NCBI GenBank assembly: GCA_017303475.1
Contig: JAFLBO010000014.1
Span: 76,782-140,781, forward strand
Length of the DNA stretch: 64,000 bases
Reading direction: 5' to 3'
Source: Chitinophagales bacterium
GTDB lineage: Bacteria > Bacteroidota > Bacteroidia > Chitinophagales > Saprospiraceae
Position numbers and translations under genes: made by a program. The notes under the pieces are model-generated. The model saw only the letters and a program-made list of their open reading frames with translations, had not been told where the DNA came from and did not search any database. Shown piece after piece: positions 1,361-61,032 of this stretch. Each line of letters begins with the position of its first letter. The first letter of the stretch is position 1.

Positions 1361-1383
1361 TTTTCTGCTATTTAGTTGATGAT

Positions 1384-2907: not shown

Positions 2908-3025
2908 TGCTGATGCGTTGATAATGAAATGTATAGGAGAGAAACAAGGCATTGGAATAGGAGTTATACAATGGCACCGTCAAGGTCCATAATATAGAAA
3001 TCCAACTCCAAAAAGCTAAAACGGC

Positions 3026-3427
3026 TCAACCAAGCGGAGGCCGGAAGATGTCCTGTACAAACAGACGTGAACAGTAATCAATGCTTCCGAAAGCATCCTT
3101 TGACAGGAATTCCTGAGCATTATTCAGGTTAACTATCGGAACATCAGAAGGTGGCAATATGATTAGTGCAACAGATGAAGCATCGGCACATCGGAAAGGT
3201 AAATCTGAATGATCCTGACTTGCATCATCGTGATGCACGCGTCCGCCATAGTGCTGAGCAAGAAAATTGAAAAAAGTCAGATGTTCACCATGTTCGTTGT
3301 GCGCATGATCATGGTGAGCATAAAAATGAGAAAGCAGTGCTGGTAGCTTCGTCAATTGTTCCAACAAAGGTGACATCCCCTGGGCAAGCAGAACAAATGC
3401 AAAGAATATAGCAATATAGTTTCTCAT
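3026..3427 (-). CDS. Small secreted His-rich protein of unknown function
   Basis: Signal peptide MRNYIAIFFAFVLLAQG; His clusters HFYAHHDHAHNEHGEH and VHHDDASQDHSDLPF; C-terminus ...DIFRPPLG. It sits just upstream of the adaptor-pump pair. Confidence 0.6.
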   Translation of the reverse strand: MRNYIAIFFAFVLLAQGMSPLLEQLTKLPALLSHFYAHHDHAHNEHGEHLTFFNFLAQHYGGRVHHDDASQDHSDLPFRCADASSVALIILPPSDVPIVNLNNAQEFLSKDAFGSIDYCSRLFVQDIFRPPLG

Positions 3428-3452
3428 ACGGGCGTAAAAATAGTAAAAAACC

Positions 3453-8913: not shown

Positions 8914-11022
8914 TCAAGATTGCATTGAGTGGATTAATTTAGCAGTCAAATCTTTTCTCAACAATTGCGCATTTAGCGCTACCACGATGGTACTTAAACT
9001 CATCAATACTGCCCCCATAGCCGGGCTGAGTACAAATTGCGGATATAATACGCCTGCGGCCAGTGGAATAGCCACCACATTATATCCCGTTGCCCACCAA
9101 AGGTTTTGAAGCATTTTGCGATAGGTCGCTTTGCCGAAATTGACCAACCCAAGCACATCTGAAGGCTTGCTGTCTGTCAAAATAATATCTGCTGTTTCGG
9201 CAGCCACATCGGTGCCAGAGCCAACGGCAATGCCTACATCTGCTTGTGCAAGTGCTGGAGCGTCATTCACGCCATCACCAGTCATGGCTACATACTCCCC
9301 TTTGGCTTGCAGGTCTTTCACGATTTCAACTTTTTGGTGGGGCAACACCTCAGCAAAATAGCCATCGAGTCCCAACTGTTCAGCGACGGCTTTCCCGACA
9401 GTGGCATTGTCGCCTGTAGCCATAAAAACTTTGATCCCTTGACTTTTCAACTGCCGTACCGCTTCAGTGGCATCGGGTCGGATTTGGTCAGATAGCGCAA
9501 GGAATCCCACCAATTTATCATCCTCCAATACAAAAACCACTGTCTCGGCAGCTGAACCAGCATCATCGACGGGCAGTTCGATGTTCTTTTCCTTCAAATA
9601 TCCAGGACTGACAACGCTGATTTTTTTGCCTTTTACTTGACCAGTGACGCCTTTGCCAGTGATGGAAGTAAAATTGGATACCGCTGGCAGTGACAGCCCA
9701 GCGGTTTTGGCTGCTGCAACTATGCCCTGAGCAATCGGATGCTGGCTCTCCTGTTCGAGCGCGGCAATGGTAGCGAGCAGGGTGTTTTTATCAAAATCTT
9801 GGGAAAGCGTTTGAATACGCGATACACCAAACTTCCCTTCAGTGAGCGTTCCCGTTTTGTCAAATACCATCGCCGTGATGCGTCGTGCATTTTCAAAAGC
9901 AGTCCTATTTCGAATAAGCAACCCACGCCGAGCGGTTATAGCCGTAGAAATAGCGACCACAAGTGGTATTGCTACACCGAGCGCATGTGGACAAGAAGTA
10001 ACCATGACCGTAACCATACGTTCAAGCGCAAAGGCCAGCGTCTGCCCTTTGGCGAGCCAGATGGCCAGCGTCCCGAATCCTACACTCAACGCAATAAAAG
10101 TCAGCCATTTAGCAGCGCGATCTGCCAAGTGTTGAGTCTGCGATTTGGCAGCTTGGGCTTCTTGCACCAGGGTAATAACCTTGTTGAGGTAACTGTCCTT
10201 GCCCGATTTGTCCACCCGAATTTTCAGACTACCTTCGCCGTTGATGGCCCCGGCGATAACTTTTGCGCCTTCTGTTTTTTGAACCGGAACGCTTTCACCT
10301 GTTAGCATACTCTCGTTCACGGTACTGCTGCCCTCAGTTACAGTGCCATCCACCGGAATTTTTTCGCCAGGCTTCACCAGGACGAGGTCTCCTATTTTCA
10401 ATTCATCCACGCGCATATCGTGCAACATTTCGCCACCGTGATACATATGCGCCTCGGCGGGCATCATTTTGACAATCAATTCCAAGGCTTTCGAGGCACC
10501 GGCAACGGATTTCATTTCGAGCCAATGCCCCAATAGCATAATAACGATCAGCGTGGCGAGTTCCCAATAGAAATCCATGCCCTCTACCAACCTGAAAACC
10601 ACAGCCGTGCTGTACAAGAATGCTACTGTTACGGCTATCCCGATGAGGGTCATCATGCCGGGCTGACGACGTTTTAGTTCGTCCCAAAGCCCGGTCAAAA
10701 ATGGCCAACCCCCATAAAAATAAATGATGCTGCCAAGCACAACCGATACCCAATCACGACCAGTAAAGTCGAAATGGTATCCGACTGCCATTTGAAACAT
10801 AGGGGAAATAGCCACTACAGGTACAGTAAGCACCAGGCATATCCAGAACCGCCGCAGGAAATCTGCAATCATCGCTGAATGGTCATGACCGCCACCATGT
10901 CCCGAATGACCTTCATTGTGCATCTCGCCTTGCATAACCATTCCATTGGGCATAACGTGTGAACTATGCCCGGAGTGATCATTCTGTGCTGGTTTTGGGT
11001 GTTCAGAGTGATGATGTTTCAT
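8914..11022 (-). CDS. copB: Copper-translocating P1B-type ATPase, CPH (P1B-3/CopB-like) subgroup with His-rich N-terminus
   Basis: N-terminus MKHHHSEHPKPAQNDHSGHSSH...HNEGHSGHGGGHDHS. TM6 motif SCPHALGVAIP. Phosphorylation site DKTGTLT and hinge motif MTGDGVNDAPALAQADVGIA. Confidence 0.9.
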   Translation of the reverse strand: MKHHHSEHPKPAQNDHSGHSSHVMPNGMVMQGEMHNEGHSGHGGGHDHSAMIADFLRRFWICLVLTVPVVAISPMFQMAVGYHFDFTGRDWVSVVLGSIIYFYGGWPFLTGLWDELKRRQPGMMTLIGIAVTVAFLYSTAVVFRLVEGMDFYWELATLIVIMLLGHWLEMKSVAGASKALELIVKMMPAEAHMYHGGEMLHDMRVDELKIGDLVLVKPGEKIPVDGTVTEGSSTVNESMLTGESVPVQKTEGAKVIAGAINGEGSLKIRVDKSGKDSYLNKVITLVQEAQAAKSQTQHLADRAAKWLTFIALSVGFGTLAIWLAKGQTLAFALERMVTVMVTSCPHALGVAIPLVVAISTAITARRGLLIRNRTAFENARRITAMVFDKTGTLTEGKFGVSRIQTLSQDFDKNTLLATIAALEQESQHPIAQGIVAAAKTAGLSLPAVSNFTSITGKGVTGQVKGKKISVVSPGYLKEKNIELPVDDAGSAAETVVFVLEDDKLVGFLALSDQIRPDATEAVRQLKSQGIKVFMATGDNATVGKAVAEQLGLDGYFAEVLPHQKVEIVKDLQAKGEYVAMTGDGVNDAPALAQADVGIAVGSGTDVAAETADIILTDSKPSDVLGLVNFGKATYRKMLQNLWWATGYNVVAIPLAAGVLYPQFVLSPAMGAVLMSLSTIVVALNAQLLRKDLTAKLIHSMQS

Positions 11023-11029
11023 AGTGTTT

Positions 11030-13993
11030 TTATCTTAAAATCACTTTTTCAGTCCCCAAAATCACATCCTCCAAACGGGCCGTTAGTATGTAAACCCCTG
11101 CCTGAATCCCCGTTGTTTTGAGTGTAAAAATTTGCTTTTCATTCGTTTTATCAAATAAGGAATAGTTCCGAACTTGTTTGCCAGCCGCATCCGTCAATTC
11201 AAAACTCAGCTTACCTGTCTTTTTTAAACCTATCTCAACCGATAAGAAGCCACCCGAAGCCATTGGGTTTGGAAAGACCCGAAATGACTCTACCCGGCCT
11301 GGTTCAAAAATGTTAACCGTAATAATAGTAACCGCCTGGGTGAGGGATTCCGTGCCGCATGGTCCCGTGGATATGAGAGTAACAGTGTAAGTTCCGTCAT
11401 TGGCGTATGTGTGTGATGGATCGGTTTGCGTGCTTGTGTTACCATCGCCAAAATCCCAGAGATAGCTGTTGGCATCGGTTGAAGTATTGGTAAAAGTAGC
11501 TGTTGCACCGATTATGGAACTGGTGAAACCTGGAATTGGCGAAGGGTTTGCATTAATATAATTCAGCTGTGTTGCCGTACTGATGCCCGCACTGTTACTC
11601 GCAGTTAGGATCACGGTATAAGTGCCAGGGCTCGGATACAATACAGCCGGGTTCTCATCTGAAGAGGAACTGGGCACACCCCCAGGGAATTGCCAGTCAA
11701 AATTCGTTGCATTGGTCGAAGACGTGCTGCTGAACTGCACTGCCAGTGGCGCACAACCATTGCTCAGATTGGATGAGAATCCTGCGGTGGGGGGAGTCGT
11801 AACTGTCACGGTTTGGGTAGTCGTGTCCGCGTTGCAAAGTCCATTTGCGATGAGCGTCACGGTATAAGTCCCATCATTGGAAAAATCGTGTGAAGGATCA
11901 GTCTGTGTACTCATGCTGCCATCTCCAAAATCCCAGACATAGCTGGCGGCATTACTGGAAGTGTTTAAAAACGAAGCTGTGGTACCATTCAGCAAGCTAC
12001 TGAAACTGGCAGTAGTCAAGGGACTCACCGTAATATAGTTCGTCTGCGTTGCGGAATTGCTACCAGCACTGTTACTCACCGTAAGTGTGACAGAGTAGCT
12101 GCCAGAGTTCGAATACACCACAGTTGGATTTTGTGTAGTGGACGAATTGGGTGTTGCGCCAGAGAATTGCCAGTTGAAGCTTGTTGTATTAGAAGAAGAT
12201 GTGCTTGTAAATTGGATTGTCAGCGGAGCACAACCATTCGTCTGATTGACCGTAAAACCTGCCGTCGGCGGCGCAACAACCACCGGAGGTGGGCCTGGCA
12301 AAATTCGTATCATACGGGCAACCGAAGGAATATCGTCCACCATTGCCCATAGCATATACCAGCCCGGCATCGAGCGCAGCGAATCGTTTGGCACAATAGC
12401 TTCTATGGCCTGTCCCTGCTGCGAGAAGTTAAGATCGAGGAAGCGGTTTTCCCCACAGTTCATCATGTGTGTAATAGCAGTAATGCTTTGCAGCACCACA
12501 GCGGTGGGCTCATTGGTTCTCCCGACCTCAAAACGGATCGTATCACCACGGTGGTAGTCCGTTTTTTGAAGATTTAATATTTGTGGGCGCACTCCCCGGA
12601 ACAAGTAGGGTGGCTTATAAGCATCGATAATACTTTGTGGAGGTTCATTACCCGGAGCACCTTCGCCGCCCACCACGATTATACGACCGTCTGGAACGAG
12701 TGTTGCAAGCGCATGGTATTCTCTTTTACGGGGCATAGGCATGAGTCGCCTCCAGGTATCTGCGTAGGGGTCATAAAGGTCTGTCAAAGCCATGTGTCCC
12801 CATTGGTTAACAGGAGTCGGATCGGAAGGCTCTTCTTTGAAGCCTGCAAGGGTCAGTATATGGCGGTCAGGCAGCAACACAGTTTCCGGACGTGAGCGCA
12901 AGGGTGCAAAATTGGATCGCAGCGTCCAGGTATTGGTGATGGGATCGTAGCGTTCGACCAGGTTGCCACCGCTGCCAGCCGGAAAAGGTTTGAAACCGAT
13001 AGCAATAACGTCGCCTTCGGGTAAGTGTACGAGTTCATGGTCAACGTGATCTCCATTAGGCATCCGGTTGCCTTGGACAAAATCGGAGGCCAAACTCCAC
13101 TGTTTCGTTGTAGGATCAAAGAGTTGAGGTGGCCGAAAAGTCATCAATACTTTGCCACTGTAAAGCGTCAGGATGGGCGATTGTTCCATACGGATGGCAA
13201 CGGTATCAGCCCATTCGGTAATACCGGTGATCGGATTGTACAATTCGCTTGTATTCACACGAACCGGGTTGTTCAGTCCACCGCCGCCAACGATGAGCAG
13301 CCTTCCATCGGCCAGTTGCGTCATGGCAGGGTACCAGCGATAGTCTAACATGGAGGGCAGAGGCTCCCATGTTTTAGTGGAAGTATTGTACTGTTTAACT
13401 TTATTGGAACCAGGGCCATATATTTCCTGGTCAGTGCCACCAGCCATGATGACCTTGCCATTCCAAAGCAGTTTCGGGGCAACGCAACCCTGTACTTTAG
13501 TATCTCCTGGGACAGTAACCGTATCATTGGCCGCCGGATCGAATGCAAAGGGGTCTTTAGTACTGTGGCAGTAATAAATAGTACCATTGGGCAACAGCAC
13601 TCCCAAGTCTGTGCCCCCGAGCGGTTCAGGAGAAACCATGATTATGTTCCATTGGCCTTGCTCTGTCTCAAGAGCGAGTTGCGCATTCTGAGTGATTGTG
13701 CCGATAATATTGGGAATTGCGTTTTGAAAATAAGCAAAACCAGGTTTGGCAGCACCAAATGACAAGGGTATACCGCTGGGGAGATTTGCAATCAAATATT
13801 GTCCTGAAGCATTGGTTCGGGTTTCCCAAAATTGAGAAGTATCAGCGTTGAACAATGTGATTCGAACATTTCCGACAGGTGCCCCGAGTGGATCAGTGAC
13901 AGTCCCAATCAGTGTTTGAGCCGACAAGGCGAGGGGCAGAAAGCAAAAAGCAAGCACTATTAACCGCATCATTTGTTCTTGTCGTGTAAGCAT
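11030..13993 (-). CDS. T9SS cargo: carboxypeptidase-regulatory-like domain + Kelch/glyoxal- or galactose-oxidase-like (copper radical oxidase, DUF1929) + 4 PKD domains + T9SS sorting domain
   Basis: YRWYPAMTQLADGRLLIVGG, REYHALATLVPDGRIIVVGGEG, PPYLFRGVRPQI, ITHMMNCGENRFLDL and MPGWYMLWAMVDDIPSVARMIRI resemble glyoxal/galactose oxidase. PKD signatures are WDFGDGSMSTQTDPSHDF and WDFGDGNTSTQTDPSHTY. The C-terminus FRVFPNPMASGG...GVYILTARL is a T9SS sorting domain. Confidence 0.75.
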   Translation of the reverse strand: MLTRQEQMMRLIVLAFCFLPLALSAQTLIGTVTDPLGAPVGNVRITLFNADTSQFWETRTNASGQYLIANLPSGIPLSFGAAKPGFAYFQNAIPNIIGTITQNAQLALETEQGQWNIIMVSPEPLGGTDLGVLLPNGTIYYCHSTKDPFAFDPAANDTVTVPGDTKVQGCVAPKLLWNGKVIMAGGTDQEIYGPGSNKVKQYNTSTKTWEPLPSMLDYRWYPAMTQLADGRLLIVGGGGLNNPVRVNTSELYNPITGITEWADTVAIRMEQSPILTLYSGKVLMTFRPPQLFDPTTKQWSLASDFVQGNRMPNGDHVDHELVHLPEGDVIAIGFKPFPAGSGGNLVERYDPITNTWTLRSNFAPLRSRPETVLLPDRHILTLAGFKEEPSDPTPVNQWGHMALTDLYDPYADTWRRLMPMPRKREYHALATLVPDGRIIVVGGEGAPGNEPPQSIIDAYKPPYLFRGVRPQILNLQKTDYHRGDTIRFEVGRTNEPTAVVLQSITAITHMMNCGENRFLDLNFSQQGQAIEAIVPNDSLRSMPGWYMLWAMVDDIPSVARMIRILPGPPPVVVAPPTAGFTVNQTNGCAPLTIQFTSTSSSNTTSFNWQFSGATPNSSTTQNPTVVYSNSGSYSVTLTVSNSAGSNSATQTNYITVSPLTTASFSSLLNGTTASFLNTSSNAASYVWDFGDGSMSTQTDPSHDFSNDGTYTVTLIANGLCNADTTTQTVTVTTPPTAGFSSNLSNGCAPLAVQFSSTSSTNATNFDWQFPGGVPSSSSDENPAVLYPSPGTYTVILTASNSAGISTATQLNYINANPSPIPGFTSSIIGATATFTNTSTDANSYLWDFGDGNTSTQTDPSHTYANDGTYTVTLISTGPCGTESLTQAVTIITVNIFEPGRVESFRVFPNPMASGGFLSVEIGLKKTGKLSFELTDAAGKQVRNYSLFDKTNEKQIFTLKTTGIQAGVYILTARLEDVILGTEKVILR
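11320..12277 (-). repeat. Tandem duplication of a two-PKD-domain unit (about 2 x 480 nt) inside the oxidase-like gene
   Basis: Protein units PPTAGFTVNQTNGCAPLTIQF...TQTVTVTT and PPTAGFSSNLSNGCAPLAVQF...TQAVTIIT align end to end. Boundaries are approximate. Confidence 0.7.
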
Positions 13994-27186: not shown

Positions 27187-29891
27187 AGTTTTCCATTTTG
27201 AAAAAATGCTAAATGTTTGCCCAGCCGGATGATAATCATCGTCAGCAGACCTGCTCCTATGCACACTACCCAATCGGCTGGCGACATAGGCGCGACGGAA
27301 AGCGCCGTCCGTACTGGTCCAATTTGATACAACCCTATGATAATGCATATACAAGCAGCAATGGCATACCAAACGTATTGATTGCGGACAACCTCGGTGC
27401 GCCAAAACGGAACGGCAATCGAACCCATATTGAAAACATGGAACAACTGACTGAAAATCAGTGTAAAAAACAGAATGTTGTTACAGCGTTGCACCAACCA
27501 ATCATCACTATTATGGATAAAAAAGTGACTGAAATATACGGCTCCGATAGTGCCTGCTGACAAAACAATCGAATAAAAAACAATCCTTCGCCAACGCGCC
27601 CGATCTATGATCGGCTCGTCCGGGTTTCGGGGCCGATGTGCCATAACACCTGGACTGCCAGCAGTAACACCCAATGCCAGCGCGGGCAGTACGTCCGTGA
27701 TAAGATTAATGAATAGAATTTGAAGAGGTTTCAATTGGAAATGCAAAAAGAGCAGCGAAACGGAAGATATTACAAGCAATTCGCTCAAATTACAGGACAA
27801 CAGAAAGACCACAAATTTTCGTATATTGTCGAAAATGACCCGTCCCTGCCGAATGGCAGTAATGATGCTGGCAAAGCTATCGTCACGCAGTACCATGTCG
27901 GCAACTTCTTGCGCCACCTGGGTACCACGTTGCCCCATGGCAATACCAATATCTGCTTTTTTGAGTGCGGGCGCATCGTTTACACCATCACCAGTCATAC
28001 CTACTATGGCTTTTCGTTCCTGGAAAACGCGTACCAAATCGAGTTTTTGTTTAGGACTGACACGTGCGAAGATTTTGGTTGTCGCCCAACGCGATTTATC
28101 CTCGGCGCTGAGGTTTTCAAAGTCTGGCATCTCTTTTCCCAACACCACCTCGGTGTTATCGGAGTCAATGATGCCCAACTGCCTGCCGATGGCTTTTGCG
28201 GTGGCTGGATGGTCTCCAGTAACCATCACCACTTCAATGCCTGCTTTTCGGCATTCGCTTATGGCGGCTGGAATTTCCTTTCTCGGCGGATCAATCAATC
28301 CGAAAAGCCCGGCAAAAACTAATTTTTCAGTCAAGTTCTCCGAATCGTAAGTATCGAGTTTAAATGCGCCCGCAATTACTTTTAACCCCGAAGAAGCCAT
28401 TTTTTCCGCTTCGACGAGCCATGCTTTGTGGTGCAATGGAGACATCGGGATGTATTTACCGGCATCGATTAGAAAGGAGCAACATTCCAATAAATCTTCG
28501 GCAGCACCTTTAGCAAAAACCATATTGCCTTCCGGTGTCTGATGCTGAGTCGCCATGATTTTAGTTTCGGAAGAAAAGGGTATTTCCGACAGCTTTGGGC
28601 ATTGAAGGCGAATGCGATTAATATCCTCACCCTGACGAAGTGCAAATTTGAGGAGTCCGGTTTCGAGTGGGTCGCCGATTTCGAGAAAATCTCCTTTTTG
28701 GGCAGAAATGTCAGCGTTGTTGCACAAGATGCCGATTTGCAGGAGGCGGCCATACTCCGCTTTTGGCAAGCTGTCTGCTGGAAGAGATTTTTCATCATCA
28801 CGCTTTTTCCATGCGCCACCAGGGGAAACCAGCGCTTCGACCTCCATTTTGTTTTGCGTGAGCGTTCCGGTTTTGTCTGTACAAATAACCGTGGTTCCTC
28901 CCAGGGTCTCCACCGCCGAAAGTTTGCGCACAATCACATTGTGGTGAGCCAGTCTGAGCATCCCTTGGGCCAGGGCAAGAGTAGCGACAATTGGCAATCC
29001 TTCAGGGACTGCGGCTACGCCAAGCGCAATCGCGGTTTCGAGCATTTCTACAATGGGTTTTCCGCCAATGACTCCTATACCGAAAATAACGACCACTAAG
29101 CCTACCGTAATTTTAATAAGCCGACCACTGAATGCTTCCAATTTACGCTCTAAAGGCGTGACGGCTTGATCAGATGTGCCCACAAGATGTGCGATTTTTC
29201 CTAATTCGGTATTCATGCCAGTCCCTGTGACCACGGCCCATCCGTTTCCTTTGGTGATGAAAGTCCCTTTGAAAAGCAGGTTCGACTGTTCTGCCAATGG
29301 CGTGTCGGTAGGTAATATGGCTGGCGCTTTTTCGACCGGTACACTCTCACCCGTAAGAGAGGCTTCGTCTACCTGCATTTGGGCACTGTTGAAGAGTCGG
29401 GCATCGGCAGGTGTCATATCTCCCGCTTCGAGGTAAATCACATCGCCAGGTACGAGTATTTCGCTGTTGATTTCCGACAGACTTCCATCGCGTAGCACTT
29501 TGACAGAGATGGAAACCATTTTTTTTAAAGCCTCCATGCTGCGCCCGGCCTGAAATTCCATGTAGAATCCTATAATGGCGTTGATGAAAATCACTACCAA
29601 TATGGCTATCCCGTCCAGCCATTCCTGGAAAGCGAAGGACAATCCCGCTGCAACGAACAACAGCAATACGATTGGGCTTTTAAATTGCCTTAAAAAAATG
29701 ACCCAGGCAGGTGTTTGCTCCCCTTGGGAAATGGCGTTGGGACCAACCAATTCCAAACGTGCAGCTGCTTCTGTTGCTGTAAGGCCATGCACAGTATCTG
29801 TGCTTATGCGGGAAATCAACTCATCCTCCCCTAAAGACCAGATAGGGATGTCTGATTTGCTCAGTATGTTGTTTTTATTACTTTTTACCAT
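27183..29891 (-). CDS. P2-type (Ca2+/Mg2+/Na+-K+-like) cation-transporting P-type ATPase; not a P1B heavy-metal pump
   Basis: Cation_ATPase_N-like GLTATEAAARLELVGPNAI. Motifs TGESVPVEK, ICTDKTGTLTQNKM, VMVTGDHPATA and MTGDGVNDAPALKKADIGIAMG. 902 aa, with no CPx motif and no HMA domain. Confidence 0.9.
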   Translation of the reverse strand: MVKSNKNNILSKSDIPIWSLGEDELISRISTDTVHGLTATEAAARLELVGPNAISQGEQTPAWVIFLRQFKSPIVLLLFVAAGLSFAFQEWLDGIAILVVIFINAIIGFYMEFQAGRSMEALKKMVSISVKVLRDGSLSEINSEILVPGDVIYLEAGDMTPADARLFNSAQMQVDEASLTGESVPVEKAPAILPTDTPLAEQSNLLFKGTFITKGNGWAVVTGTGMNTELGKIAHLVGTSDQAVTPLERKLEAFSGRLIKITVGLVVVIFGIGVIGGKPIVEMLETAIALGVAAVPEGLPIVATLALAQGMLRLAHHNVIVRKLSAVETLGGTTVICTDKTGTLTQNKMEVEALVSPGGAWKKRDDEKSLPADSLPKAEYGRLLQIGILCNNADISAQKGDFLEIGDPLETGLLKFALRQGEDINRIRLQCPKLSEIPFSSETKIMATQHQTPEGNMVFAKGAAEDLLECCSFLIDAGKYIPMSPLHHKAWLVEAEKMASSGLKVIAGAFKLDTYDSENLTEKLVFAGLFGLIDPPRKEIPAAISECRKAGIEVVMVTGDHPATAKAIGRQLGIIDSDNTEVVLGKEMPDFENLSAEDKSRWATTKIFARVSPKQKLDLVRVFQERKAIVGMTGDGVNDAPALKKADIGIAMGQRGTQVAQEVADMVLRDDSFASIITAIRQGRVIFDNIRKFVVFLLSCNLSELLVISSVSLLFLHFQLKPLQILFINLITDVLPALALGVTAGSPGVMAHRPRNPDEPIIDRARWRRIVFYSIVLSAGTIGAVYFSHFFIHNSDDWLVQRCNNILFFTLIFSQLFHVFNMGSIAVPFWRTEVVRNQYVWYAIAACICIIIGLYQIGPVRTALSVAPMSPADWVVCIGAGLLTMIIIRLGKHLAFFQNGKL

Positions 29892-29910
29892 TGTAAATTA
29901 TGGTTGGGCA

Positions 29911-30783
29911 CTATTCTGATATGGCCGTCGCCAGCAGACCCGCGACGTCAATGCGATTAGATGGGTGTTGAATTGTATTGCAACTAATAACCTGGGCAGC
30001 CCCCGCGACAACTAAGTCGTCGTAAGCATTGCCTGCGAAAACCGGGTGTACACCGATACAGACCGGCGCAACCATACCCGATACATGGAGATGCCCTACC
30101 GTTTCTATCATGGTATGGGCGGTCGAAATGATGTCGTCCACCAAAACCGGGGTGCGTCCATGGTATGCCGCCACAGCAGGTTTTGAGACTTCCACCTCGT
30201 GGTCGCTATGACGAACTTTTTCAAGTACAAGAAAAGGCGATTCCGCTGCTGCTGCTACTTTCGATACCCATTGCTCACTTTCACTATCAGGCCCTATGAT
30301 AATGGGGTTGACCACATTTTGCCGAATCCAGTCAGACACTAACGGCGCGGCGTGGATGGCTTTGCAAGGGATGGCATAGAGTTCCGACATAGAACCATGC
30401 CGGTGTAAGTGGGGGTCAATGGTGATAAGCCGGTCCACAAAAGAGGAAAGCAGTGCGGCAAAATAATTGCTTGTAACCGCTTCGCCCGGATTGAACACCT
30501 TGTCCTGTCGCATATAAGCTAAGTAAGGTGCTATTAGTGTGACAGATTTTGCACCACTGTCTTTGAGTAATTTCGTTAAGTAATATAGGGGTAAAATCTT
30601 ATCGTCAGGTTGAAACAAGGTGCAGACGATGACCGTTTGCTGCTCCTTAACTTCGCAAAGCAGCCTGACATAGCTTTCCCCGTCCGGGAAACGGTGAACC
30701 GTAAAAATGCCCAATTCGGCATCCAAATGGCGCGATATGCCGCGTGCCAGAACCGTATTTCCGGGCAATGCAAATATCTTCAT
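29911..30783 (-). CDS. Ribose-phosphate pyrophosphokinase (PRPP synthetase) family protein
   Basis: MKIFALPGNTVLARGISRHLDAELGIFTVHRFPDGESYVRL and PRPP-binding loop PVLVDDIISTAHTM. ATGA overlap with the upstream gene. Confidence 0.8.
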   Translation of the reverse strand: MKIFALPGNTVLARGISRHLDAELGIFTVHRFPDGESYVRLLCEVKEQQTVIVCTLFQPDDKILPLYYLTKLLKDSGAKSVTLIAPYLAYMRQDKVFNPGEAVTSNYFAALLSSFVDRLITIDPHLHRHGSMSELYAIPCKAIHAAPLVSDWIRQNVVNPIIIGPDSESEQWVSKVAAAAESPFLVLEKVRHSDHEVEVSKPAVAAYHGRTPVLVDDIISTAHTMIETVGHLHVSGMVAPVCIGVHPVFAGNAYDDLVVAGAAQVISCNTIQHPSNRIDVAGLLATAISE

Positions 30784-54357: not shown

Positions 54358-54903
54358 TCAGTTGCCGTGTATTAATTCTATGGTCATCATTTGTTTAAGC
54401 TTAGCACGTGCTTTCGAGAGGTTCGACTTGGATGCACCGACCGAAATGCGGAGCATTTCTGCAATTTCGGAGTGTGTATGGCCTTCAAGTGCAAAAAGAC
54501 TTAGAGTCATTCTATAGGCTGGAGGAAGCTTTTGGATCAGGATTATCATATCTTCCGCAGCCATTTTGGACAGATAGTCATCTTCCACACTTAGATTCAA
54601 CTCTTCGGTCATGTCATGTATCACTATGTCCTTCAGGTGCTTATGATAATGGTTGATGGCTGTTCGAACTACGATAATGCGCAACCATGTCGTGAATGAG
54701 AGGTTCTCATTGTAGTTACCGATGCTGGTAAAAACTTTGAGGAAAGCATCATTCAAGACTTCGCGGGCTTCCGTTTCGAGGCTACAATAAGTTAACGCCA
54801 CGGACAGGGCATAACCGTAATAGCGGTCATACAGTGCTTTTTGACTTAGCCGGTCATTGTTCCGGCAGCCAGCCACGATATGCTTTAACCCTTCGTCTTT
54901 CAC
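54358..54903 (-). CDS. ECF-type RNA polymerase sigma-70 family factor
   Basis: Region 2 LYDRYYGYALSVALTYC...FLKVF. Region 4 EGHTHSEIAEMLRISVGASKSNLSKARAKLKQ. GTG start at 54903. Confidence 0.85.
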   Translation of the reverse strand: MKDEGLKHIVAGCRNNDRLSQKALYDRYYGYALSVALTYCSLETEAREVLNDAFLKVFTSIGNYNENLSFTTWLRIIVVRTAINHYHKHLKDIVIHDMTEELNLSVEDDYLSKMAAEDMIILIQKLPPAYRMTLSLFALEGHTHSEIAEMLRISVGASKSNLSKARAKLKQMMTIELIHGN

Positions 54904-55768
54904 CTTTGATTATCAATTCAGGAAAATTGACTTAGAGGTTGCCTGGCAGGGTGATTTTTTTTGAGGCTTCATATTTTCTTTTTGACCCATTGGGCTTCTA
55001 TGCTTGAGGCAGACAGGTGAAGCGTCTTTTGAAATTTTTTGAGTATAATGCAGAATGCAAAACCGCCACCTGGGTAGCAGAGGAACTCAGAGCAAGCTGT
55101 CAGGTTAGAGTTCGTGTACAGTTTTAAACTGGCACGGGATCGAATCGAGGTTGACCAGTTCGGCTCGTACAATGATTACTTCTGAGTAGTAAGCCATACT
55201 GTTCAAACTTGGCTTTTCAAAAATTCTTTAGCGCTTCAAGTAGATTTGGAGTTATTAACAGACTTCTTTGGATGAAAAAAAGTGTTCGCGAGTTGTGAAC
55301 AGGCTAAGGCATGATCTCATAATGCCGCCGCCTCCCCCTCCGAGTTATTTCTCCCCCTTCTTCTGTCATTTTGAATGCATTCCCCCTACAGGCTTAATAT
55401 GCATGGTATAGGAGCTAACTGTTCATGTTTTTAAGTGGGACCGATATGCATTAGCAATAAGGTATGCCACTCTTATAGCAATGATATCTCATTAAGTATG
55501 CGCTCTTCACTTCATTTCGTGCCGGATAACAAATGCTTCCAGGAATCATGGACGCAGGTCTGAAAGTAATGTGCGGAGCCTTCAGCACAGATGCTATGTT
55601 GTTAAATCCGTATGACCTGCGAAATTTTGCGGTGAAAGTTGGTAAGCAATAATGAACCTTGGATTCCCACAAATCAAGGCTGTATGAATTGAAAACCACC
55701 CAGTTGTACTTGAGACATAAACAACTGGATGGTTTTTGTATTGTAATTATTTTGATGTGTATAAGTGA

Positions 55769-56107
55769 TCAAACAAAGGTTCGAGACGAAACGCGATTGC
55801 CTTCGGATTCTTCCAACATACCTATAGTGGATAAGTCTGTCAGTACGATGTGTACGCTTAACATATGGTCTGTTATGACCAATTGGAACACCCAGACATT
55901 GGTAACCTCATCTATACCAACTGGCGGCAACTCATTGATGTCAGCGTCAAACGCTTCGGCAAATTGATGCACATCCAAGTCTTGAATGTAACGACCTGAC
56001 ACGATGTGATCTCTCCAATGGTGGCAAGCATCAAGTAGGCTATTTGCGGTTTGCTGGCTGATATAAGTGCCACCTTGATAGTCTGTGATAAAAGTGAAGG
56101 TTTTCAT
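55769..56107 (-). CDS. Hypothetical 112-aa acidic protein
   Basis: Probable start ATG 56107 (MKTFTFITDYQGGTYISQQTANSLLDACHHW...), 1 nt after the stop of the upstream ORF. The track ORF extends to 56257 in overlap. Confidence 0.45.
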   Translation of the reverse strand: MKTFTFITDYQGGTYISQQTANSLLDACHHWRDHIVSGRYIQDLDVHQFAEAFDADINELPPVGIDEVTNVWVFQLVITDHMLSVHIVLTDLSTIGMLEESEGNRVSSRTFV

Positions 56108-56108
56108 A

Positions 56109-56534
56109 TCAATTCCCTTTGTGTTTTTGAGAGTGATTCTCGCCGGTAAAATCTTTCTTCTTTCGTAAACGCTCCAGTTGCTTCCGGAGTTTCTCGATGA
56201 ATTTCTTGTCGTCTGGTGTTTTGTTCGGTTTCCGGTTCCAGTTTTGAAATTCTTCACGGATCTTTTCGTACTCCTGATTGGCTTTATCTCTGGCCTTCTG
56301 GTTTACATGCGGTTCATTGCGACCGCTACTCTTATCCATTCTTATGCGACCGGTCTCGGCATCGTTTGGTCGAGTTGTGTAATAATAGGAAGCCGTGAAT
56401 GTCGATCCAATGACTAAGGAAAACAGTAGGAGCAACCGACCGATAGGGAACTGTTTTGCAGAAGCGTTCGGATGTGGTGTCGTGAAGGTACTCATAAGTA
56501 AAGGTATTTTCAAGTAGCAAATATAGGGTCTCAT
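56109..56534 (-). CDS. Hypothetical protein with one TM segment and a Lys/Arg/Glu-rich tail
   Basis: TM segment FPIGRLLLLFSLVIGSTFTASYYY, then KARDKANQEYEKIREEFQNWNRKPNKTPDDKKFIEKLRKQLERLRKKKDFTGENHSQKHKGN. Confidence 0.45.
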   Translation of the reverse strand: MRPYICYLKIPLLMSTFTTPHPNASAKQFPIGRLLLLFSLVIGSTFTASYYYTTRPNDAETGRIRMDKSSGRNEPHVNQKARDKANQEYEKIREEFQNWNRKPNKTPDDKKFIEKLRKQLERLRKKKDFTGENHSQKHKGN

Positions 56535-56551
56535 ACCGAAAAATGAGAAGC

Positions 56552-58342
56552 TTACGGGATACCGTTAAATCTTCCGCCTTGAAGCCCTTCTACCCAAAGG
56601 TTCAATTGTTGATAGAACAACTGACAGCTATCATTGGGAGGCATGCTGATATAAAAGGTAGCCTCTTTCCCGACCGGTAGGATCTCCGGTACGATTTCAT
56701 CCGTTCGCATTACAGCTTCACCACTTGCATCTGTGATTTTCAGCCGGTAGTTGCCAAGTTCTTCGGTGAGTATTGACCTCACTTCCATCACTACATCCTC
56801 CAATTCAGACGCGATGCAAAGAATACTGTCATGCTTTGAAAATACCTTGTACCCTTTGTTCACAAGGCGGAGCAAAATCCGATCTATAAATATATGGCTC
56901 TCGCGTTGCTGAAGCAAAATGGCGAATTGCTCGTTTCCGTTGTTCTTTTTGTAAGCGTCGATGAGTCTTATCAAAGTAGGGAAAATTTTCTTCAATTGCC
57001 TTTTCCCTTCCCCTTGAGATTTATACTTGGCGAAGAAGATCTCAAATGCAAATAGCTTTGCATCTCTGACGTTTTGCAGGTTTAGTTTGTCCTTTATATA
57101 TTCATAGATTTTTCCGCTTTTTGCAAGTTGTATAAAGTGAAGTAAATCGCTGGGCAAACTATGCAAACTTCCAGAGAAAACGCCATAGTCACTTCTTTTT
57201 CGATTAATATCCACATCAGAATTGGCGGACATAAGTGCGGCGACTGGATGATGTTGGGTGGAGCCGTTTATGTATTGGATGACATACCTGGTAAATGTAT
57301 AGGATGAGTCTGAATTGGTTGAGAACATTAACTTTTGAGTTGTAGGTGTTTCCAATTTGAGAATTTGGTTTAGCTCATTTCGAAAGTGATCTTTTTCTAT
57401 AAGGTCAGCCAATATCGTAAACTGTGAATTGGCTAAGTCAATCGAATATAACGATTCATCATTAAGCCTTAGGTGTGGTAAGAGAAGTGAAGGAAATGAA
57501 GTAAGATTTGAATCCAGCCGATTATTAGTCTTATTCCTCTTAGCGTAAAATGACCTGTACTGAAACTGGGCTATACTATAACCGTAGCTTTGTCTTAGGT
57601 GGTATTTCTTCAGATCGTAATAAAGTTCTGGCTTTTCAATAACAAATTTGTTTTTGTCCTTGATCAGTGAATAACCTCTTTCGTTTGCTATTTGTCTTAC
57701 AAGCCAAGCCACGTGTTCAATCTTATCATCAAGAAAGTATGGCAACTCAGTGGAATCTGCTTTTACAAACCGGTCGTCCTGGATTTCGTAATCAATCTGA
57801 ATCTTCTCTTTGAACCCGCCTTCCTGGATATACGTATTCAGCTCAGTCTTTGCAGCCCGGACATTCAGTTTTAGTAATCTCATCATGCGCCTGGTATGCT
57901 TGGCAACTATGGAATTGTCCTTCCGTTTGTAGTTGACCTCGCTTATAATAGTCTCGTATTCTACGGTAGTTACATCTTCGCTCAAATGTTTTGGATTAAT
58001 ACGATAGGACTTACAAAACTTGTTGCCTTCAAAATTTGAGTAGCTTCTTGTGGATTGTATGATGCCGTGTTTTTTCATCAGGTTCAACGTGCGCTCGTAG
58101 TGCTCATCTATGGCTTTCTGCCAGTAAGTTGAAGGAATTTCGACATATTTTCCAGCAACCTGAGATGCCTTGTAGAGGATGTGAAGTGCATGGAGCATTT
58201 TGTCTCTTTGAACTTCTGATTTTACCGGAATTGTGTTGACAGCTTCGAGTACGCGTGTGTGTATCACGGTCAGTCTTTTTTTCTTCTTACTTTTCATGTT
58301 TGTTTTCTTAATAATCGTAGTGCCATCGAACCTTCCGGCCAC
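56552..58342 (-). CDS. Hypothetical protein with a divergent family-A (Pol I/T7-like) polymerase palm-fingers core in aa ~270-510
   Basis: Motif look-alikes in canonical order: TNNRLDSNLTSFP; LYSIDLANSQFTILADL; VRDAKLFAFEIFFAKY; LQQRESHIFIDRIL; KVFSKHDSILC. The track start at 58342 is GTG; the probable start is ATG 58297 (MKSKKKKRL). The CDS itself is solid; the functional call is tentative. Confidence 0.5.
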   Translation of the reverse strand: MAGRFDGTTIIKKTNMKSKKKKRLTVIHTRVLEAVNTIPVKSEVQRDKMLHALHILYKASQVAGKYVEIPSTYWQKAIDEHYERTLNLMKKHGIIQSTRSYSNFEGNKFCKSYRINPKHLSEDVTTVEYETIISEVNYKRKDNSIVAKHTRRMMRLLKLNVRAAKTELNTYIQEGGFKEKIQIDYEIQDDRFVKADSTELPYFLDDKIEHVAWLVRQIANERGYSLIKDKNKFVIEKPELYYDLKKYHLRQSYGYSIAQFQYRSFYAKRNKTNNRLDSNLTSFPSLLLPHLRLNDESLYSIDLANSQFTILADLIEKDHFRNELNQILKLETPTTQKLMFSTNSDSSYTFTRYVIQYINGSTQHHPVAALMSANSDVDINRKRSDYGVFSGSLHSLPSDLLHFIQLAKSGKIYEYIKDKLNLQNVRDAKLFAFEIFFAKYKSQGEGKRQLKKIFPTLIRLIDAYKKNNGNEQFAILLQQRESHIFIDRILLRLVNKGYKVFSKHDSILCIASELEDVVMEVRSILTEELGNYRLKITDASGEAVMRTDEIVPEILPVGKEATFYISMPPNDSCQLFYQQLNLWVEGLQGGRFNGIP

Positions 58343-58571
58343 GGCAATTACAATTGTTGAATGTGATAGAAATTATGGCAAAGCATGTCTGAACTCTTGT
58401 GAAGGGCACACTTATTTGCCCTTACAAAAGCCTACGCTTATTAAAGTTATGGGGAGTGAATTTACCGAGGCGTATCTCCATTGGTTATTCCGGAATGCTT
58501 ACCTGTTAGAGATTTTCCAGTGCCGCAAAACCTTCGACACTTTTGAATCGCATTCGTCGGGTGCGGGAGCC

Positions 58572-58826
58572 TTAGACTTTTATCTCGCCTTCACGGTACA
58601 TTCTCCTTAATGGCGACTCCGACACCTGGAGTACTTTAGCAGCCTCGGTGCAAGTAAGGATTTTATCAGGTAATGGCTTTGAGGTAAGTGTACTATTCTG
58701 CGATAGTAACGGCTTGATCTTATCAACAACGTGTTCGGCAATTTTTCCTGCGCCACGTTCAATAACTTTGTCTCCAACCTTGTTGGTAAACTCCTCGATG
58801 CCCATCTTGGTGAAATAATCTGTCAT
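58572..58826 (-). CDS. Excisionase/MerR-type helix-turn-helix protein
   Basis: C-terminal LTCTEAAKVLQVSESPLRRMYREGEIKV. Confidence 0.6.
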   Translation of the reverse strand: MTDYFTKMGIEEFTNKVGDKVIERGAGKIAEHVVDKIKPLLSQNSTLTSKPLPDKILTCTEAAKVLQVSESPLRRMYREGEIKV

Positions 58827-59461
58827 GCGTCTGCGACCGTGAAAGAATGGTATGTTTAGATTGTTCCAGCATTGAACACACTAAGGGCGTTTGAACCTGT
58901 ACACCGCGTCCAGCCGGATATTGCAGCAAAGTTATTGGTGACAACTTCGAAAAACCAAAAGGATTTTAAAGAAAATTCCGCAAAGGTGGATTTTTGTGTA
59001 AAAAAAATTTTAATAGAGCAAGATAATCAAAATATAATATCAAACAATCTTAGTTTTGACGTCAATCAGTCCTGGATGATTAACCTGGGATCGACTATTC
59101 TGCGACCGAATTAATTGTGCATTTTCCTCTCCTTCAACACACACATACTTTAGGAATTCTTTATGTGTGCGGTGTCCTGCGTCGCTTCAAATACCAACGT
59201 TTGATAAGCTACCTCGATGACCGTTTTGGTTTGAAGGTACTCCATATAGATGTCAAGATCGTTGAGCATATCGCAGAATTGGTTAAATCAAACACGCCCG
59301 TTCAGGTGTCATTTTTATAACAGGGTAGGTATAATTTCATTGGTGAGACTATCAGGGTAAGGGTTTCAAGGCAAAATTACTATGCATCAAGAATTAAACC
59401 GGTTATGCAAAGACAGGAAGATGTTTGCCCAATTGTGCGGCTTATCATTTTGTTGTTATTG

Positions 59462-59522: not shown

Positions 59523-60224
59523 ATGATGAATACCACAGAAGGTTTTGTTAGGAACCTTTTTCGCAGTGAAAAGCCTTCGGTCAGCACGGTAAACTTTGAT
59601 GATCCTGATGTTTGGGTATGTGACTTGCTCAACGAAAGTGCTGAACTCGCGAATGAATATATCAGATACCGGTTGGACAACGCTCATTCCAATGATAACA
59701 GGCTTTCCTTCCTCTATGATTGTCGGCATTGTTTTAAATGCGCCTTGGATGAACTGAGGTTTTATAAAGAAAACCCGGATTTTGTGATTGCCCCAACTTG
59801 CTGCGGTAACCCATACTATCATTCACCTGATGAGGGGATTTTGATTTATGAGCATGCTCTGAATAAAGTTGAACATGCCATTTGCCATTATCAGGACTGC
59901 GAAAAATTGGCATGTAGTGAAAGCCCCTCTGATGAGAAGCCGGTGAAGAATCCTGGGAATACAACAACCCGGCAGGTTTTGGCTATGTACTATCTTGCTG
60001 AACATCTTGGAATCTGGGGTAGGATTGACAAATCAGGATTGGAATCCTTTACCGAATTTTTCACCGGAAAAAGCTCGTCTGAAATCCATAAGAAGTTCAT
60101 AAGACCTTTGGACAATAAACAAGACGTTAAAGAAAGGAAGAAGGATTTCATGTTTGTCAAGGGGCATTTCGAAAGGTTGGGGCTCCGTGATGTAGTCGAA
60201 CAAATAAAAAGGGATATGGGGTGA
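59523..60224 (+). CDS. Hypothetical Cys-rich protein
   Basis: 233 aa with CRHCFKC, PTCCGNPYYH and ICHYQDCEKLAC. No family recognised. Confidence 0.5.
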   Translation: MMNTTEGFVRNLFRSEKPSVSTVNFDDPDVWVCDLLNESAELANEYIRYRLDNAHSNDNRLSFLYDCRHCFKCALDELRFYKENPDFVIAPTCCGNPYYHSPDEGILIYEHALNKVEHAICHYQDCEKLACSESPSDEKPVKNPGNTTTRQVLAMYYLAEHLGIWGRIDKSGLESFTEFFTGKSSSEIHKKFIRPLDNKQDVKERKKDFMFVKGHFERLGLRDVVEQIKRDMG

Positions 60225-60306
60225 TATTTGGGTGCACTCAAGGGTGCACCCATGCCTCTTTTTCATTAAAACCTTTGTGCCAACGATTATAAAAAAGAGT
60301 TGGCGT

Positions 60307-60639
60307 ATGCAAAACCCATTTTCAGAGCTTGACCAAAGGCTCACTTCGATAGAAAGCATTTTGCTTCAACTCCAAGCCAGTCTTTCCCAGCCCAAAGTCG
60401 ACGCCAGTCGGCTTCCGATAAATATTGACCGCGTGAGCGAGATGTCCAACCTTGCCAAACCCACCATCTACAGTCTGGTTGGAGCCAAAAAAATCCCGCA
60501 TGCCAAGCAGGGCAAAAAACTGTATTTTTTCGAGGATGAAATCATAGATTGGATTCGTCAAGGGAAGCGAAAGACACTGAGTGAAATCGAAGCGGAAGCG
60601 GCTACGCACCTCGAAAACCGCCGCCAAAAGAAAACCTGA
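60307..60639 (+). CDS. Excisionase-type helix-turn-helix DNA-binding protein
   Basis: Probable start ATG 60307 (MQNPFSELDQRL...). MSNLAKPTIYSLVGAKKIPHAKQGKKLYFFEDEIIDWIRQGK is typical of Bacteroidota mobile-element excisionase-like HTH proteins. Confidence 0.65.
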   Translation: MQNPFSELDQRLTSIESILLQLQASLSQPKVDASRLPINIDRVSEMSNLAKPTIYSLVGAKKIPHAKQGKKLYFFEDEIIDWIRQGKRKTLSEIEAEAATHLENRRQKKT

Positions 60640-60945: not shown

Positions 60946-60958
60946 TTGATAATGAATG

Positions 60959-61032
60959 TCGGGATACCAGGATTCGAACCTGGGACCCCCTGCTCCCAAA
61001 GCAGGTGCGCTACCGGACTGCGCTACATCCCG
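60959..61032 (-). tRNA. tRNA-Pro (anticodon TGG)
   Basis: Minus strand reads CGGGATGTAGCGCAGTCCGGTAGCGCACCTGCTTTGGGAGCAGGGGGTCCCAGGTTCGAATCCTGGTATCCCGA. It folds as a cloverleaf with anticodon loop TTTGGGA and T-loop GGTTCGAATCC. No encoded CCA. Confidence 0.95.

Follow-up and report, generated by a model that had tools for sequence, protein, structure and literature searches.

A predicted family-A polymerase with a winged-helix-like N-terminal domain, resembling TV-Pols, in a degraded integrative element of a Chitinophagales bacterium

The window analysed here is a 64,000-nucleotide stretch of DNA from a Chitinophagales bacterium (GenBank assembly GCA_017303475.1, contig JAFLBO010000014.1, positions 76,782 to 140,781 of the forward strand); positions are counted from its first letter. 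One minus-strand gene of the window, described at first as hypothetical, encodes a protein that we interpret as an exonuclease-less family-A polymerase joined to a winged-helix-like domain and resembling the TV-Pols, minimal PolA-like proteins found in phages and bacterial mobile elements. It would act as a one-protein, origin-binding initiator and primase-polymerase of mobile elements, and the copy in the window would lie in a degraded element. We give this reading a probability of about 0.6.

The open reading frame (ORF) call gives a protein of 596 amino acids (aa) from a GTG codon. The true start is likely the ATG at 58297 (M16), giving 581 aa, since homologues begin at the equivalent of M16. 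The gene and the features predicted within it are as follows:

56552..58342, minus strand: PolA-like (TV-Pol-like) polymerase gene, 596 aa from GTG (ORF call)
57938..58294, minus strand: N-terminal subdomain 1 (aa 17-135), winged-helix-like, with conserved Y82 and a 'CKxYRINP' motif (Y113, N116)
57557..57910, minus strand: N-terminal subdomain 2 (aa 145-262), in models an alpha/beta unit followed by a long helix (238-261) into the palm
57494..57550, minus strand: beta-hairpin 'RNKTNNRLDSNLT' (aa 265-283), with R269 and invariant R275, corresponding to Pol I 'TGRLSS..PNLQNIP' (R668)
57395..57457, minus strand: motif A 'SIDLANSQFTILADL' (aa 296-316), with the putative catalytic Asp D302, and Q307 at the steric-gate position (Pol I E710)
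57164..57349, minus strand: fingers insertion of 62 aa (aa 332-393), modelled with low confidence and a gap in most sequences
57029..57115, minus strand: fingers O-helix and motif B 'GKIYEYI...VRDAKLFAFEIFFA' (aa 410-438), with G410, Y413, K429, F433 and F437
56882..56914, minus strand: 'LQQRESHIFID' helix (aa 477-487), Q478 corresponding to Pol I Q849; Q478 and E481 invariant
56813..56842, minus strand: motif C 'VFSKHDSILC' (aa 501-510), with H504 and D505 invariant and S506 in 83/87 homologues (95%)

An AlphaFold2 model built without templates reached a predicted local distance difference test score (pLDDT) of 77, with more than half of the residues above 90. Foldseek comparison of this model with the PDB, a check put forward in the preliminary description of the window, returned family-A DNA polymerases as all of the top 50 matches. 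T7 DNA polymerase (DNAP) was best (E=1.7e-4, probability 1.0), and the matches included the apicoplast polymerase, Taq, Klenow, mycobacterial Pol1 and Pol theta. TM-scores were low (0.25-0.34), since these enzymes have nothing that corresponds to the N-terminal ~260 residues. In a viral fold library the model matched phage proteins of 403-450 aa, some of them named DNA polymerase, at E values down to 1e-21. The best two of these, unnamed or called 'putative DNA polymerase I', had E=1e-21 and 7e-16 and TM-scores of 0.74 and 0.65 on the target. Neither Pfam nor the fold search revealed a 3'-5' or 5'-3' exonuclease domain, and none had been seen by eye.

Conservation was scored on an alignment of 87 diverse homologues with a mean column identity of 20%. 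The only invariant columns were R275, D302, Y413, K429, Q478, E481, H504 and D505, and conservation of at least 90% was seen at R269, N273, D277, N279, T281, N305, S306, Q307, F437, L477, D487 and S506. Invariant columns of a 16-sequence alignment included R269, R275, N279, T281, D302, N305, S306, K429, F433, Q478, E481, D487, H504, D505 and S506. In the hairpin, the model has strands at 267-269 and 276-278, and the hhalign register places it onto Pol I 660-680. D302 (87/87) aligned with Pol I D705 and T7 DNAP D475, and Q307 was present in 86/87. Within motif B, K429 (87/87) aligned with Pol I K758 and T7 DNAP K522; Y413 was found in 87/87, F433 in 72/87 and F437 in 83/87. The 'LQQRESHIFID' helix aligned with 'MQGTAAD' of Pol I and 'LLQSAGA' of T7 DNAP, and motif C with H881-D882 of Pol I and 'VHDE' of T7 DNAP. 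The fingers insertion had pLDDT below 50 and was missing from the short (~440 aa) members of the family.

The motifs were co-linear in profile-to-sequence hhalign on R668, D705, K758, Q849, H881 and D882 of E. coli Pol I and on D475, K522, Q615 and D654 of T7 DNAP. Scores were checked against reversed and shuffled targets, and we treat these alignments as supportive by their register, not as independent statistical proof. Family-A motifs in this order, with catalytic roles for D302, K429 and D505, had been proposed from the letters of the sequence, and the invariance of these residues (87/87), the fold matches and the co-linear alignments all bear the proposal out. Given the predicted fold, the motif order and the invariance of exactly those residues expected to be catalytic or to contact substrate, we regard a PolA-type palm-fingers core as established as far as in silico work allows. 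Homology to family A rests mainly on the predicted fold and motif co-linearity, because the profile links lie near noise.

The polymerase ORF is intact and, judged by substitution ratios, under purifying selection. The ratio of non-synonymous to synonymous divergence (dN/dS) was 0.35 against the 97% identical relative L030 (~16 non-synonymous and 13 synonymous changes; binomial P=0.006 versus neutrality) and 0.18 against the relative L003. The N-terminal (aa 1-262) and C-terminal (aa 263-596) parts of the protein gave similar values of 0.30 and 0.38.

The N-terminal region was basic (aa 16-262, pI 9.5), as the preliminary description had stated, and a separate model of aa 17-262 reached a pLDDT of 92. 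The suggestion that this region binds DNA found some support: nearly all of its fold matches were winged helix-turn-helix (wHTH) DNA-binding proteins (CodY, Fur, ArsR/SmtB, MarR and TFIIE), at weak significance. On this weak evidence the N-terminus looks like a winged-helix DNA-binding domain. A plasmid Rep/RepA-type double winged helix was considered and rejected, the matches being to generic wHTH proteins only (E>0.05). Subdomain 2 may, from its position in the models, stand in for the thumb; a fold search with it returned no match. A weak resemblance to the IF3 N-domain was seen at aa ~181-230 (~57650-57800) of subdomain 2 (PDB 1tif, E=0.15; Pfam IF3_N, E=0.13 in one member).

The protein had been called an orphan, which proved wrong. 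A word-indexed homologue search found 19 homologues, mostly in metagenome-assembled genomes of Saprospiraceae, and gave no additional members when rerun with a profile. An exhaustive hidden Markov model (HMM) search over 1.84 billion cluster representatives (50% identity) returned 7,878 proteins at E<=1e-3, 5,911 at E<=1e-10 and 1,752 at E<=1e-30. Most members were 430-600 aa long and matched the entire profile, including the N-terminal domain, and the D..NSQ, LQ..E and HDS motifs recurred through the top 150 matches. A narrower-alignment scan of a genome collection returned only Saprospiraceae/Lewinellaceae relatives. Judged from these searches the family is very large and is carried on small integrative elements, plasmids and phages, mainly of Bacteroidota according to the taxon-labelled records. 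The family is uncurated, being missing from Pfam, PHROGs, NCBIfam and PADLOC: neither the window protein nor 16 members scanned one by one had a meaningful match in these libraries or among PDB sequences, and the window protein and five further members matched no PHROG. Uncultured huge phages of 595-735 kb (LR756511, LR745206, LR756501-4; H1-H6) gave weak tblastn matches to the C-terminal half (E 2e-7 to 1), so that the family seems, by sequence, to extend to megaphages.

Genomic contexts were sampled from ~20 loci. L018 has an element of ~5 kb with four genes (tyrosine integrase, a 281-aa gene, HTH_17 and the polymerase) within a 1.3-Mb contig. At L001 the order was integrase, a 236-aa gene, HTH_17, an integrase fragment, a broken HTH gene, a 215-aa gene and the polymerase, followed by a host sigma-70 gene. 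A serine resolvase adjoined the polymerase at L019 and at L026/L027, and at L026 the pair lay in an island with restriction-modification (RM), HEPN and GmrSD genes. The neighbours of the polymerase at L028/L029 were genes for ParA, an integrase, a NikA-like protein and a toxin-antitoxin pair. On a 35-kb plasmid of Hymenobacter qilianensis (L017, NZ_CP060788.1), a clear member of the family (148 bits) lay near a ParA-like gene. This plasmid also carries a second, annotated ParA/replication-initiator module (modules at 407-4398 and 27817-30450) and may be a two-replicon cointegrate.

On phage contigs (portal, terminase and holin genes) the polymerase was the first gene of a rightward operon, after an intergenic region of 100-680 bp. 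Another 13 viral contigs (10-99 kb) came from a pattern scan of IMG/VR. A crude ORF map was drawn for nine phage or viral loci, six from the IMG/VR scan and three from the phage contigs, and in 9/9 the polymerase stood in first or second place behind a strand switch. The polymerase occupies the slot usually held by an initiator or primase. Three of these nine loci carry Pfam labels over 15-19 kb: no primase, helicase or other polymerase was recognised there, and a weak Rad52 match and a DnaA_C-domain protein were all that related to replication or recombination. The polymerase-headed operon of the phage at L024 also contains a DnaA C-terminal-domain protein and a Rad52-like annealing protein (9738-10274; 11511-12074), which hints that these genes are the remainder of that phage's replication and recombination kit. 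The preliminary description had offered 'replicase of a tiny integrated element' as one of two possible roles, and this is the one that the contexts of relatives support best. The polymerase is the best candidate for starting replication of these elements because it is the only recognised candidate replication enzyme in the examined parts of ~30-kb phages and in four-gene integrative elements of Bacteroidota.

It had further been stated that a stand-alone minimal PolA-like enzyme in such a setting is not a described module, and this was largely mistaken. Minimal PolA-like enzymes of mobile elements are already described as TV-Pol (PMC2579912), CcPol-MP and PolA-SSB (PMC7581432, PMC10061031) and divPolA2 (PMC11348598). 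The present, very large and uncurated family is new among them, and the parts consulted of two recent surveys of family-A polymerases (PMC10201439, PMC12926913) do not describe it.

TV-Pols are minimal PolA-like proteins of 400-600 aa with a thumb, a beta-hairpin Arg, two palm Asp residues and an RxxxK motif in the fingers (Iyer, Abhiman & Aravind 2008, PMC2579912). They are unlinked to nucleases, occur in phages and in bacterial mobile elements including those of Bacteroidetes, and were predicted to function as prim-pols; a subset carries an extra N-terminal domain ('TV-PolN') and lies beside lambda-type integrases, resolvases or transposases (PMC2579912). The present family has the same minimal core, with R275 in the predicted hairpin, D302 and D505, RxxxK in 77/87, and D399 and D487 conserved. 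It shares the length of 400-600 aa, the lack of a nuclease domain, an extra N-terminal globular domain and the contexts with integrase, resolvase, ParA and phage genes. It differs in that no fused or adjacent D5-type helicase was seen. The thumb may differ as well: that of TV-Pols consists of two antiparallel coiled-coil helices, and the model here has one long helix (238-261) after a small alpha/beta subdomain. TV-PolN is all-helical, whereas the N-domain here is predicted to be an alpha+beta winged helix.

The comparison was made through an ORF of Microcystis phage Ma-LMM01 that lies beside IS605-type transposases, together with five homologues; we take this ORF to be the published TV-Pol of that phage. 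Its family conserves a GLRxYE R-hairpin, N.D..KCHATIA, K..A.LA..NGA, LQ..E and QHDGA in the same order as here, and its N-terminal 'C.RYRI' corresponds to 'CK.YRINP'. In hhalign the two families matched weakly, at E=5.9e-4 with a score of 37 (shuffles at most 26) and a probability of 29%, and the core of the match fell in the N-terminal domain. Relaxed settings gave an alignment that was co-linear across all motifs over the full length. The most fitting place for the family, on these likenesses, is within the TV-Pol group or beside it.

Together with its partner MP, CcPol of SCCmec, itself a TV-Pol member, has been demonstrated to start DNA synthesis de novo with dNTPs (PMC7581432), and related PolA-SSB pairs, SSB denoting a single-stranded DNA-binding protein, are widespread in Bacillota (PMC10061031). 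Common to CcPol-MP and the window locus are a family-A domain without working proofreading, placement on an integrative element and small genes downstream in one operon. CcPol is Pol I-derived by sequence and keeps E710 and F762, whereas the present family has Gln at the gate and goes undetected by PolA HMMs. CcPol is partnered by an OB-fold SSB, with a helicase following, while the small genes here encode clade-only proteins, one basic with a transmembrane (TM) segment and coiled-coil-like, the other acidic; ORF and Pfam scans found no helicase or serine recombinase in the islet. The host phylum also differs, CcPol-MP and PolA-SSB belonging to elements of Bacillota.

The phage divPolA2 proteins of a 2024 survey are ~430 aa long, combine a PolA palm with an N-terminal domain of unknown origin, lack both a thumb and an exonuclease, and were suggested to be repair DNAPs or RNA polymerases (RNAPs) (PMC11348598). 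They resemble the present family in palm and fingers, in lacking an exonuclease and a canonical thumb, and in having an N-terminal globular domain, and fold links run from the window model to a Rheinheimera phage Barba31A protein (E=7.5e-6) and to Aeromonas phage proteins (~1e-7). They differ in their YDF and FDE motifs, compared with HDS in motif C here, and in co-existing with a regular PolB in variable contexts. Membership in divPolA2 was rejected: hhalign gave E=0.2, at noise, and AUR84708 belongs to phrog_4756, whereas the window protein and the five further members had no PHROG match.

Pol I and T7 gp5 share with the window protein the palm-fingers fold and the order and identity of key residues in the pre-A hairpin, motifs A, B and C and the Q849 helix. 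They differ from it in that here both exonucleases are lacking, the thumb is reduced or replaced, and a putative DNA-binding module of its own stands at the N-terminus. Relative to Pol I, the gate is Gln and the Y766 position is Phe, and the Pfam DNA_pol_A and RNA_pol models are not reached.

The proposed mechanism is modelled on two precedents, CcPol-MP, in which the partner supplies binding of single-stranded DNA, and T7 RNAP, whose N-terminal domain gives promoter binding for de novo initiation (discussed in PMC10061031). The N-terminal domain would bind the element's origin and offer single-stranded template to the polymerase active site. There D302 and D505 would act with metal ions, K429 and Y413 would hold the nucleotide, and R275 and Q478 would touch the primer-template. 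The thumb-poor enzyme would begin a strand de novo and extend it a short way, after which the host replisome would take over.

Several points weigh against this reading. Polymerase activity is a prediction, from sequence and models, for every member of the family. HMM searches of Pfam and the PDB yielded nothing with the protein, and 16 members and the 87-sequence profile drew no polymerase match even at E<=10. The hhalign scores against Pol I and T7 DNAP were 22.6 and 29.1, barely off the noise of controls that reach 26, and the link to the Ma-LMM01 ORF family is weak, with a plain HMM score of 4.8 bits. Fold matches of aa 17-262 were weak, at E 0.05-0.3 over ~90-95 columns. Four positions before the motif-B Lys, 77/87 homologues have Arg but the window protein has V425, followed by R426; of the positions named for a conservation check in the preliminary description, D302, K429 and D505 proved invariant and R426 lies one off the family's Arg column. 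No origin-like iterons were found near the polymerase gene, and no helicase or SSB partner lies nearby, contrary to the classical TV-Pol and CcPol contexts. Finally, judging by its gene remnants, the element around the window polymerase is no longer able to integrate or excise by itself, and a pure element-replicase role leaves the continued selection on the window polymerase unexplained for that reason.

The surroundings of the gene bear on this last point. It lies in an islet of ~55.6-60.95 kb that adjoins tRNA-Pro and tRNA-Ser and has a GC content of 41.7% compared with 48.3% in the remainder of the window, in line with the AT-rich islet described earlier. The features of the islet outside the polymerase gene are:

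55692..55736, no strand: hairpin, possible terminator, a 94% complementary inverted repeat with 16-nt arms
55769..56107, minus strand: 112-aa acidic protein (p112), third gene of the operon (ORF), 1-nt gap after p141
56109..56534, minus strand: 141-aa basic protein (p141), second gene of the operon (ORF), 17-nt gap after the polymerase gene
58506..58826, minus strand: excisionase-type HTH_17 pseudogene, in-frame TAA at 58572-58574, partial HTH_17/excisionase matches
59067..59225, minus strand: remnant of a tyrosine-integrase C-terminus, ~50 codons (tblastn)
59523..60224, plus strand: 233-aa protein (ORF), which accompanies integrase and HTH_17 in relatives
60232..60639, plus strand: HTH_17 (excisionase/AlpA-type) DNA-binding protein (Pfam HTH_17 E=1e-9; phrog_25262 E=1e-13)
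60958..61032, minus strand: tRNA-Pro(TGG), one edge of the islet (ARAGORN)

Upstream of the polymerase gene, an excisionase-type HTH gene had been reported. Its type held, on a partial and sub-threshold match, and the gene proved to be interrupted: the 84-aa ORF (58572-58826) matched only the first half of HTH_17, the remaining domain residues lie in frame past the TAA, and L030 has Tyr at the position of the stop. Homologues of this gene are broken by differing stops or frameshifts in L030, L003, L004 and L001, and the polymerase is intact in all of them. The integrase remnant matched residues 360-402 of the L018 integrase (E=4e-4) and a 154-aa fragment at L001 (E=2e-13). A tblastn search with the integrases of relatives found no intact integrase within the window, and a search of the rest of the window for an att duplication of the tRNA-Pro 3' end was likewise negative. 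The islet is also a mosaic. The segment 59300-61014, with the 233-aa gene and HTH_17, had 93-94% DNA identity to L003/L004, compared with ~73% for the polymerase arm (55580-59271), and the break at ~59.27-59.30 kb falls at the integrase stub. Synonymous divergence was ~10x higher in the polymerase arm than in the adjacent arm (1.22 versus 0.13-0.18), and the polymerase arm therefore has a separate history. From these remains the window copy is read as a degraded integrative element at tRNA-Pro in which the polymerase, p141 and p112 are still maintained.

Such a locus could also be explained by domestication, the host having kept the polymerase with a membrane-anchored p141 and p112 as a nucleic-acid-synthesising conflict or defence module against phages or other elements. 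The reduction of the integrase to ~50 codons fits this, as do the independent breakage of the HTH gene in the window, L030, L003, L004 and L001 beside an intact polymerase under purifying selection, and the tight operon of polymerase, p141 and p112 kept in L003 and L004. The ~10x synonymous divergence of the polymerase arm is as expected for swapped or fast-turning modules, and some relatives lie in islands with RM, HEPN, GmrSD, Abi_2 and SocA genes, although mobile elements usually land in defence islands too. PADLOC was negative for six genes, bar a weak mad1-like match of the HTH protein, and the conflict system that had been suggested as the other possible role found no direct support. The two small genes are missing from the rest of the family, and most family contexts are plainly replication slots of phages, plasmids or integrative elements. 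We consider domestication unlikely. Capture by the host in a Lewinellaceae-like lineage, making polymerase, p141 and p112 a new immunity or conflict system in which, for example, a polymerase product on invading nucleic acid would be sensed by the membrane-anchored partner, seems more doubtful still.

The protein could also be a single-subunit DNA-dependent RNAP, or a primase making only RNA primers, that like the T7-like and N4 RNAPs transcribes element genes or makes RNA. The positions relevant to sugar choice point both ways. The gate residue is Gln in 86/87 (Q307), where DNAPs have Glu and T7 RNAP has Gly, and motif C reads H-D-S (S506 in 83/87) as in T7-like RNAPs and not H-D-E as in DNAPs. 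Gln is, however, equal in bulk to the Glu gate; the residue four positions after the motif-B Lys is Phe, as in Pol I (F762). Eight positions after that Lys stands Phe, not Tyr. T7 RNAP does start de novo through an N-terminal DNA-recognition domain (PMC10061031), and an RNAP role was also proposed as possible for the structurally similar divPolA2 (PMC11348598). T7-like RNAPs nevertheless stood far down the fold lists (E 0.03-0.7, probability 0.06-0.38) and hhalign to T7 RNAP was at noise, so that membership in their family was rejected, HDS being the only shared feature. CcPol, the sole assayed TV-Pol-like enzyme, uses dNTPs (PMC7581432), and the phage gene sits in a replication slot, unlike a transcription switch. 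An RNAP is improbable on this balance. Sugar choice is not readable from the sequence; we lean towards a preference for dNTPs because of the analogy with CcPol and the bulky gate residue.

The loss of the motif-B Arg in the window protein, and its complete lack in the relatives P0002 and P0007, could alternatively mark a catalytically weakened or dead copy, whose clade would use the protein only as a DNA-binding regulator or structural partner, with the core a relic; the decay of the surrounding element would agree with this. D302, D505, K429, Y413, Q478 and H504 are nevertheless all intact, purifying selection acts alike on both halves, and the neighbouring R426 may replace the lost Arg, which makes such a relic quite improbable. 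An accessory repair or translesion DNA polymerase of host or phage is the least probable of the explanations weighed: it would suit the lack of proofreading and the repair role suggested for divPolA2 where a regular PolB is present (PMC11348598), but no linkage to repair genes was seen, Pfam recognised no other replication enzyme in 15-19 kb of ~30-kb phages or in the four-gene integrative element, and the N-terminal domain, which looks sequence-specific, suits initiation better.

If a winged helix and a polymerase do form a one-protein initiator and primase, the reach of CcPol-MP, the single biochemical precedent, would grow by a second phylum and another architecture, the prediction made for TV-Pols in 2008 could be tested, and a compact, proofreading-free PolA scaffold would be available for enzyme engineering. 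Thousands of clusters with a complete-looking family-A active site escape every curated library tried and are annotated as hypothetical. The window locus itself, with decayed mobility genes set against a maintained polymerase, offers a small testable case of possible domestication.

The operon that the polymerase gene heads agrees with its first description in the gaps of 17 nt and 1 nt and, by ORF and pI data, in its 141-aa TM and Lys/Glu-rich protein and its 112-aa acidic protein. p141 has a pI of 10.0, a single hydrophobic segment and a Lys/Glu-rich tail. It had no above-threshold family match in Pfam, PHROGs, NCBIfam or PADLOC; a match to KdpC (E=4.5e-4) was below the cutoff and was rejected as spurious, resting on the transmembrane and low-complexity region. 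p112 has a pI of 4.5 and had no PDB sequence relative, no Pfam match and no plasmid relative of note. Conservation of the two small genes, which was to be followed among homologues, extended to the closest relatives only: among the relative loci compared, homologues were present in L003 and L004 and partly in L030. By this distribution p141 and p112 are restricted to the clade of the window and are not partners across the whole polymerase family. The hairpin at 55692-55736 has a 13-nt loop and no T-run, lies 33 nt beyond the stop codon of p112 and is a possible terminator.

On the other side of the integrase remnant, the 233-aa protein had no PDB sequence relative. It was 24% identical to the gene after the L001 integrase and 93-96% identical to its counterparts in L003/L004. 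The 233-aa and HTH_17 genes (59523-60639) form a pair that stands after an intact integrase in L001 and shows strong purifying selection (dN/dS ~0.1). The HTH_17 protein (60232-60639) also gave a sub-threshold NCBIfam match to the MADS defence protein MAD1 (E=2e-7; 31 bits, compared with a cutoff of 80).

In both the window (54358-54903, minus strand) and L001 (10266-10838), a sigma-70 gene of the extracytoplasmic function type, followed by a gene of ~440 aa, adjoins the polymerase module. The two sigma-70 proteins were 34% identical, and L001 is a 43% identical relative. This arrangement suggests that the two modules lie in the same chromosomal neighbourhood of distant Saprospirales genomes.

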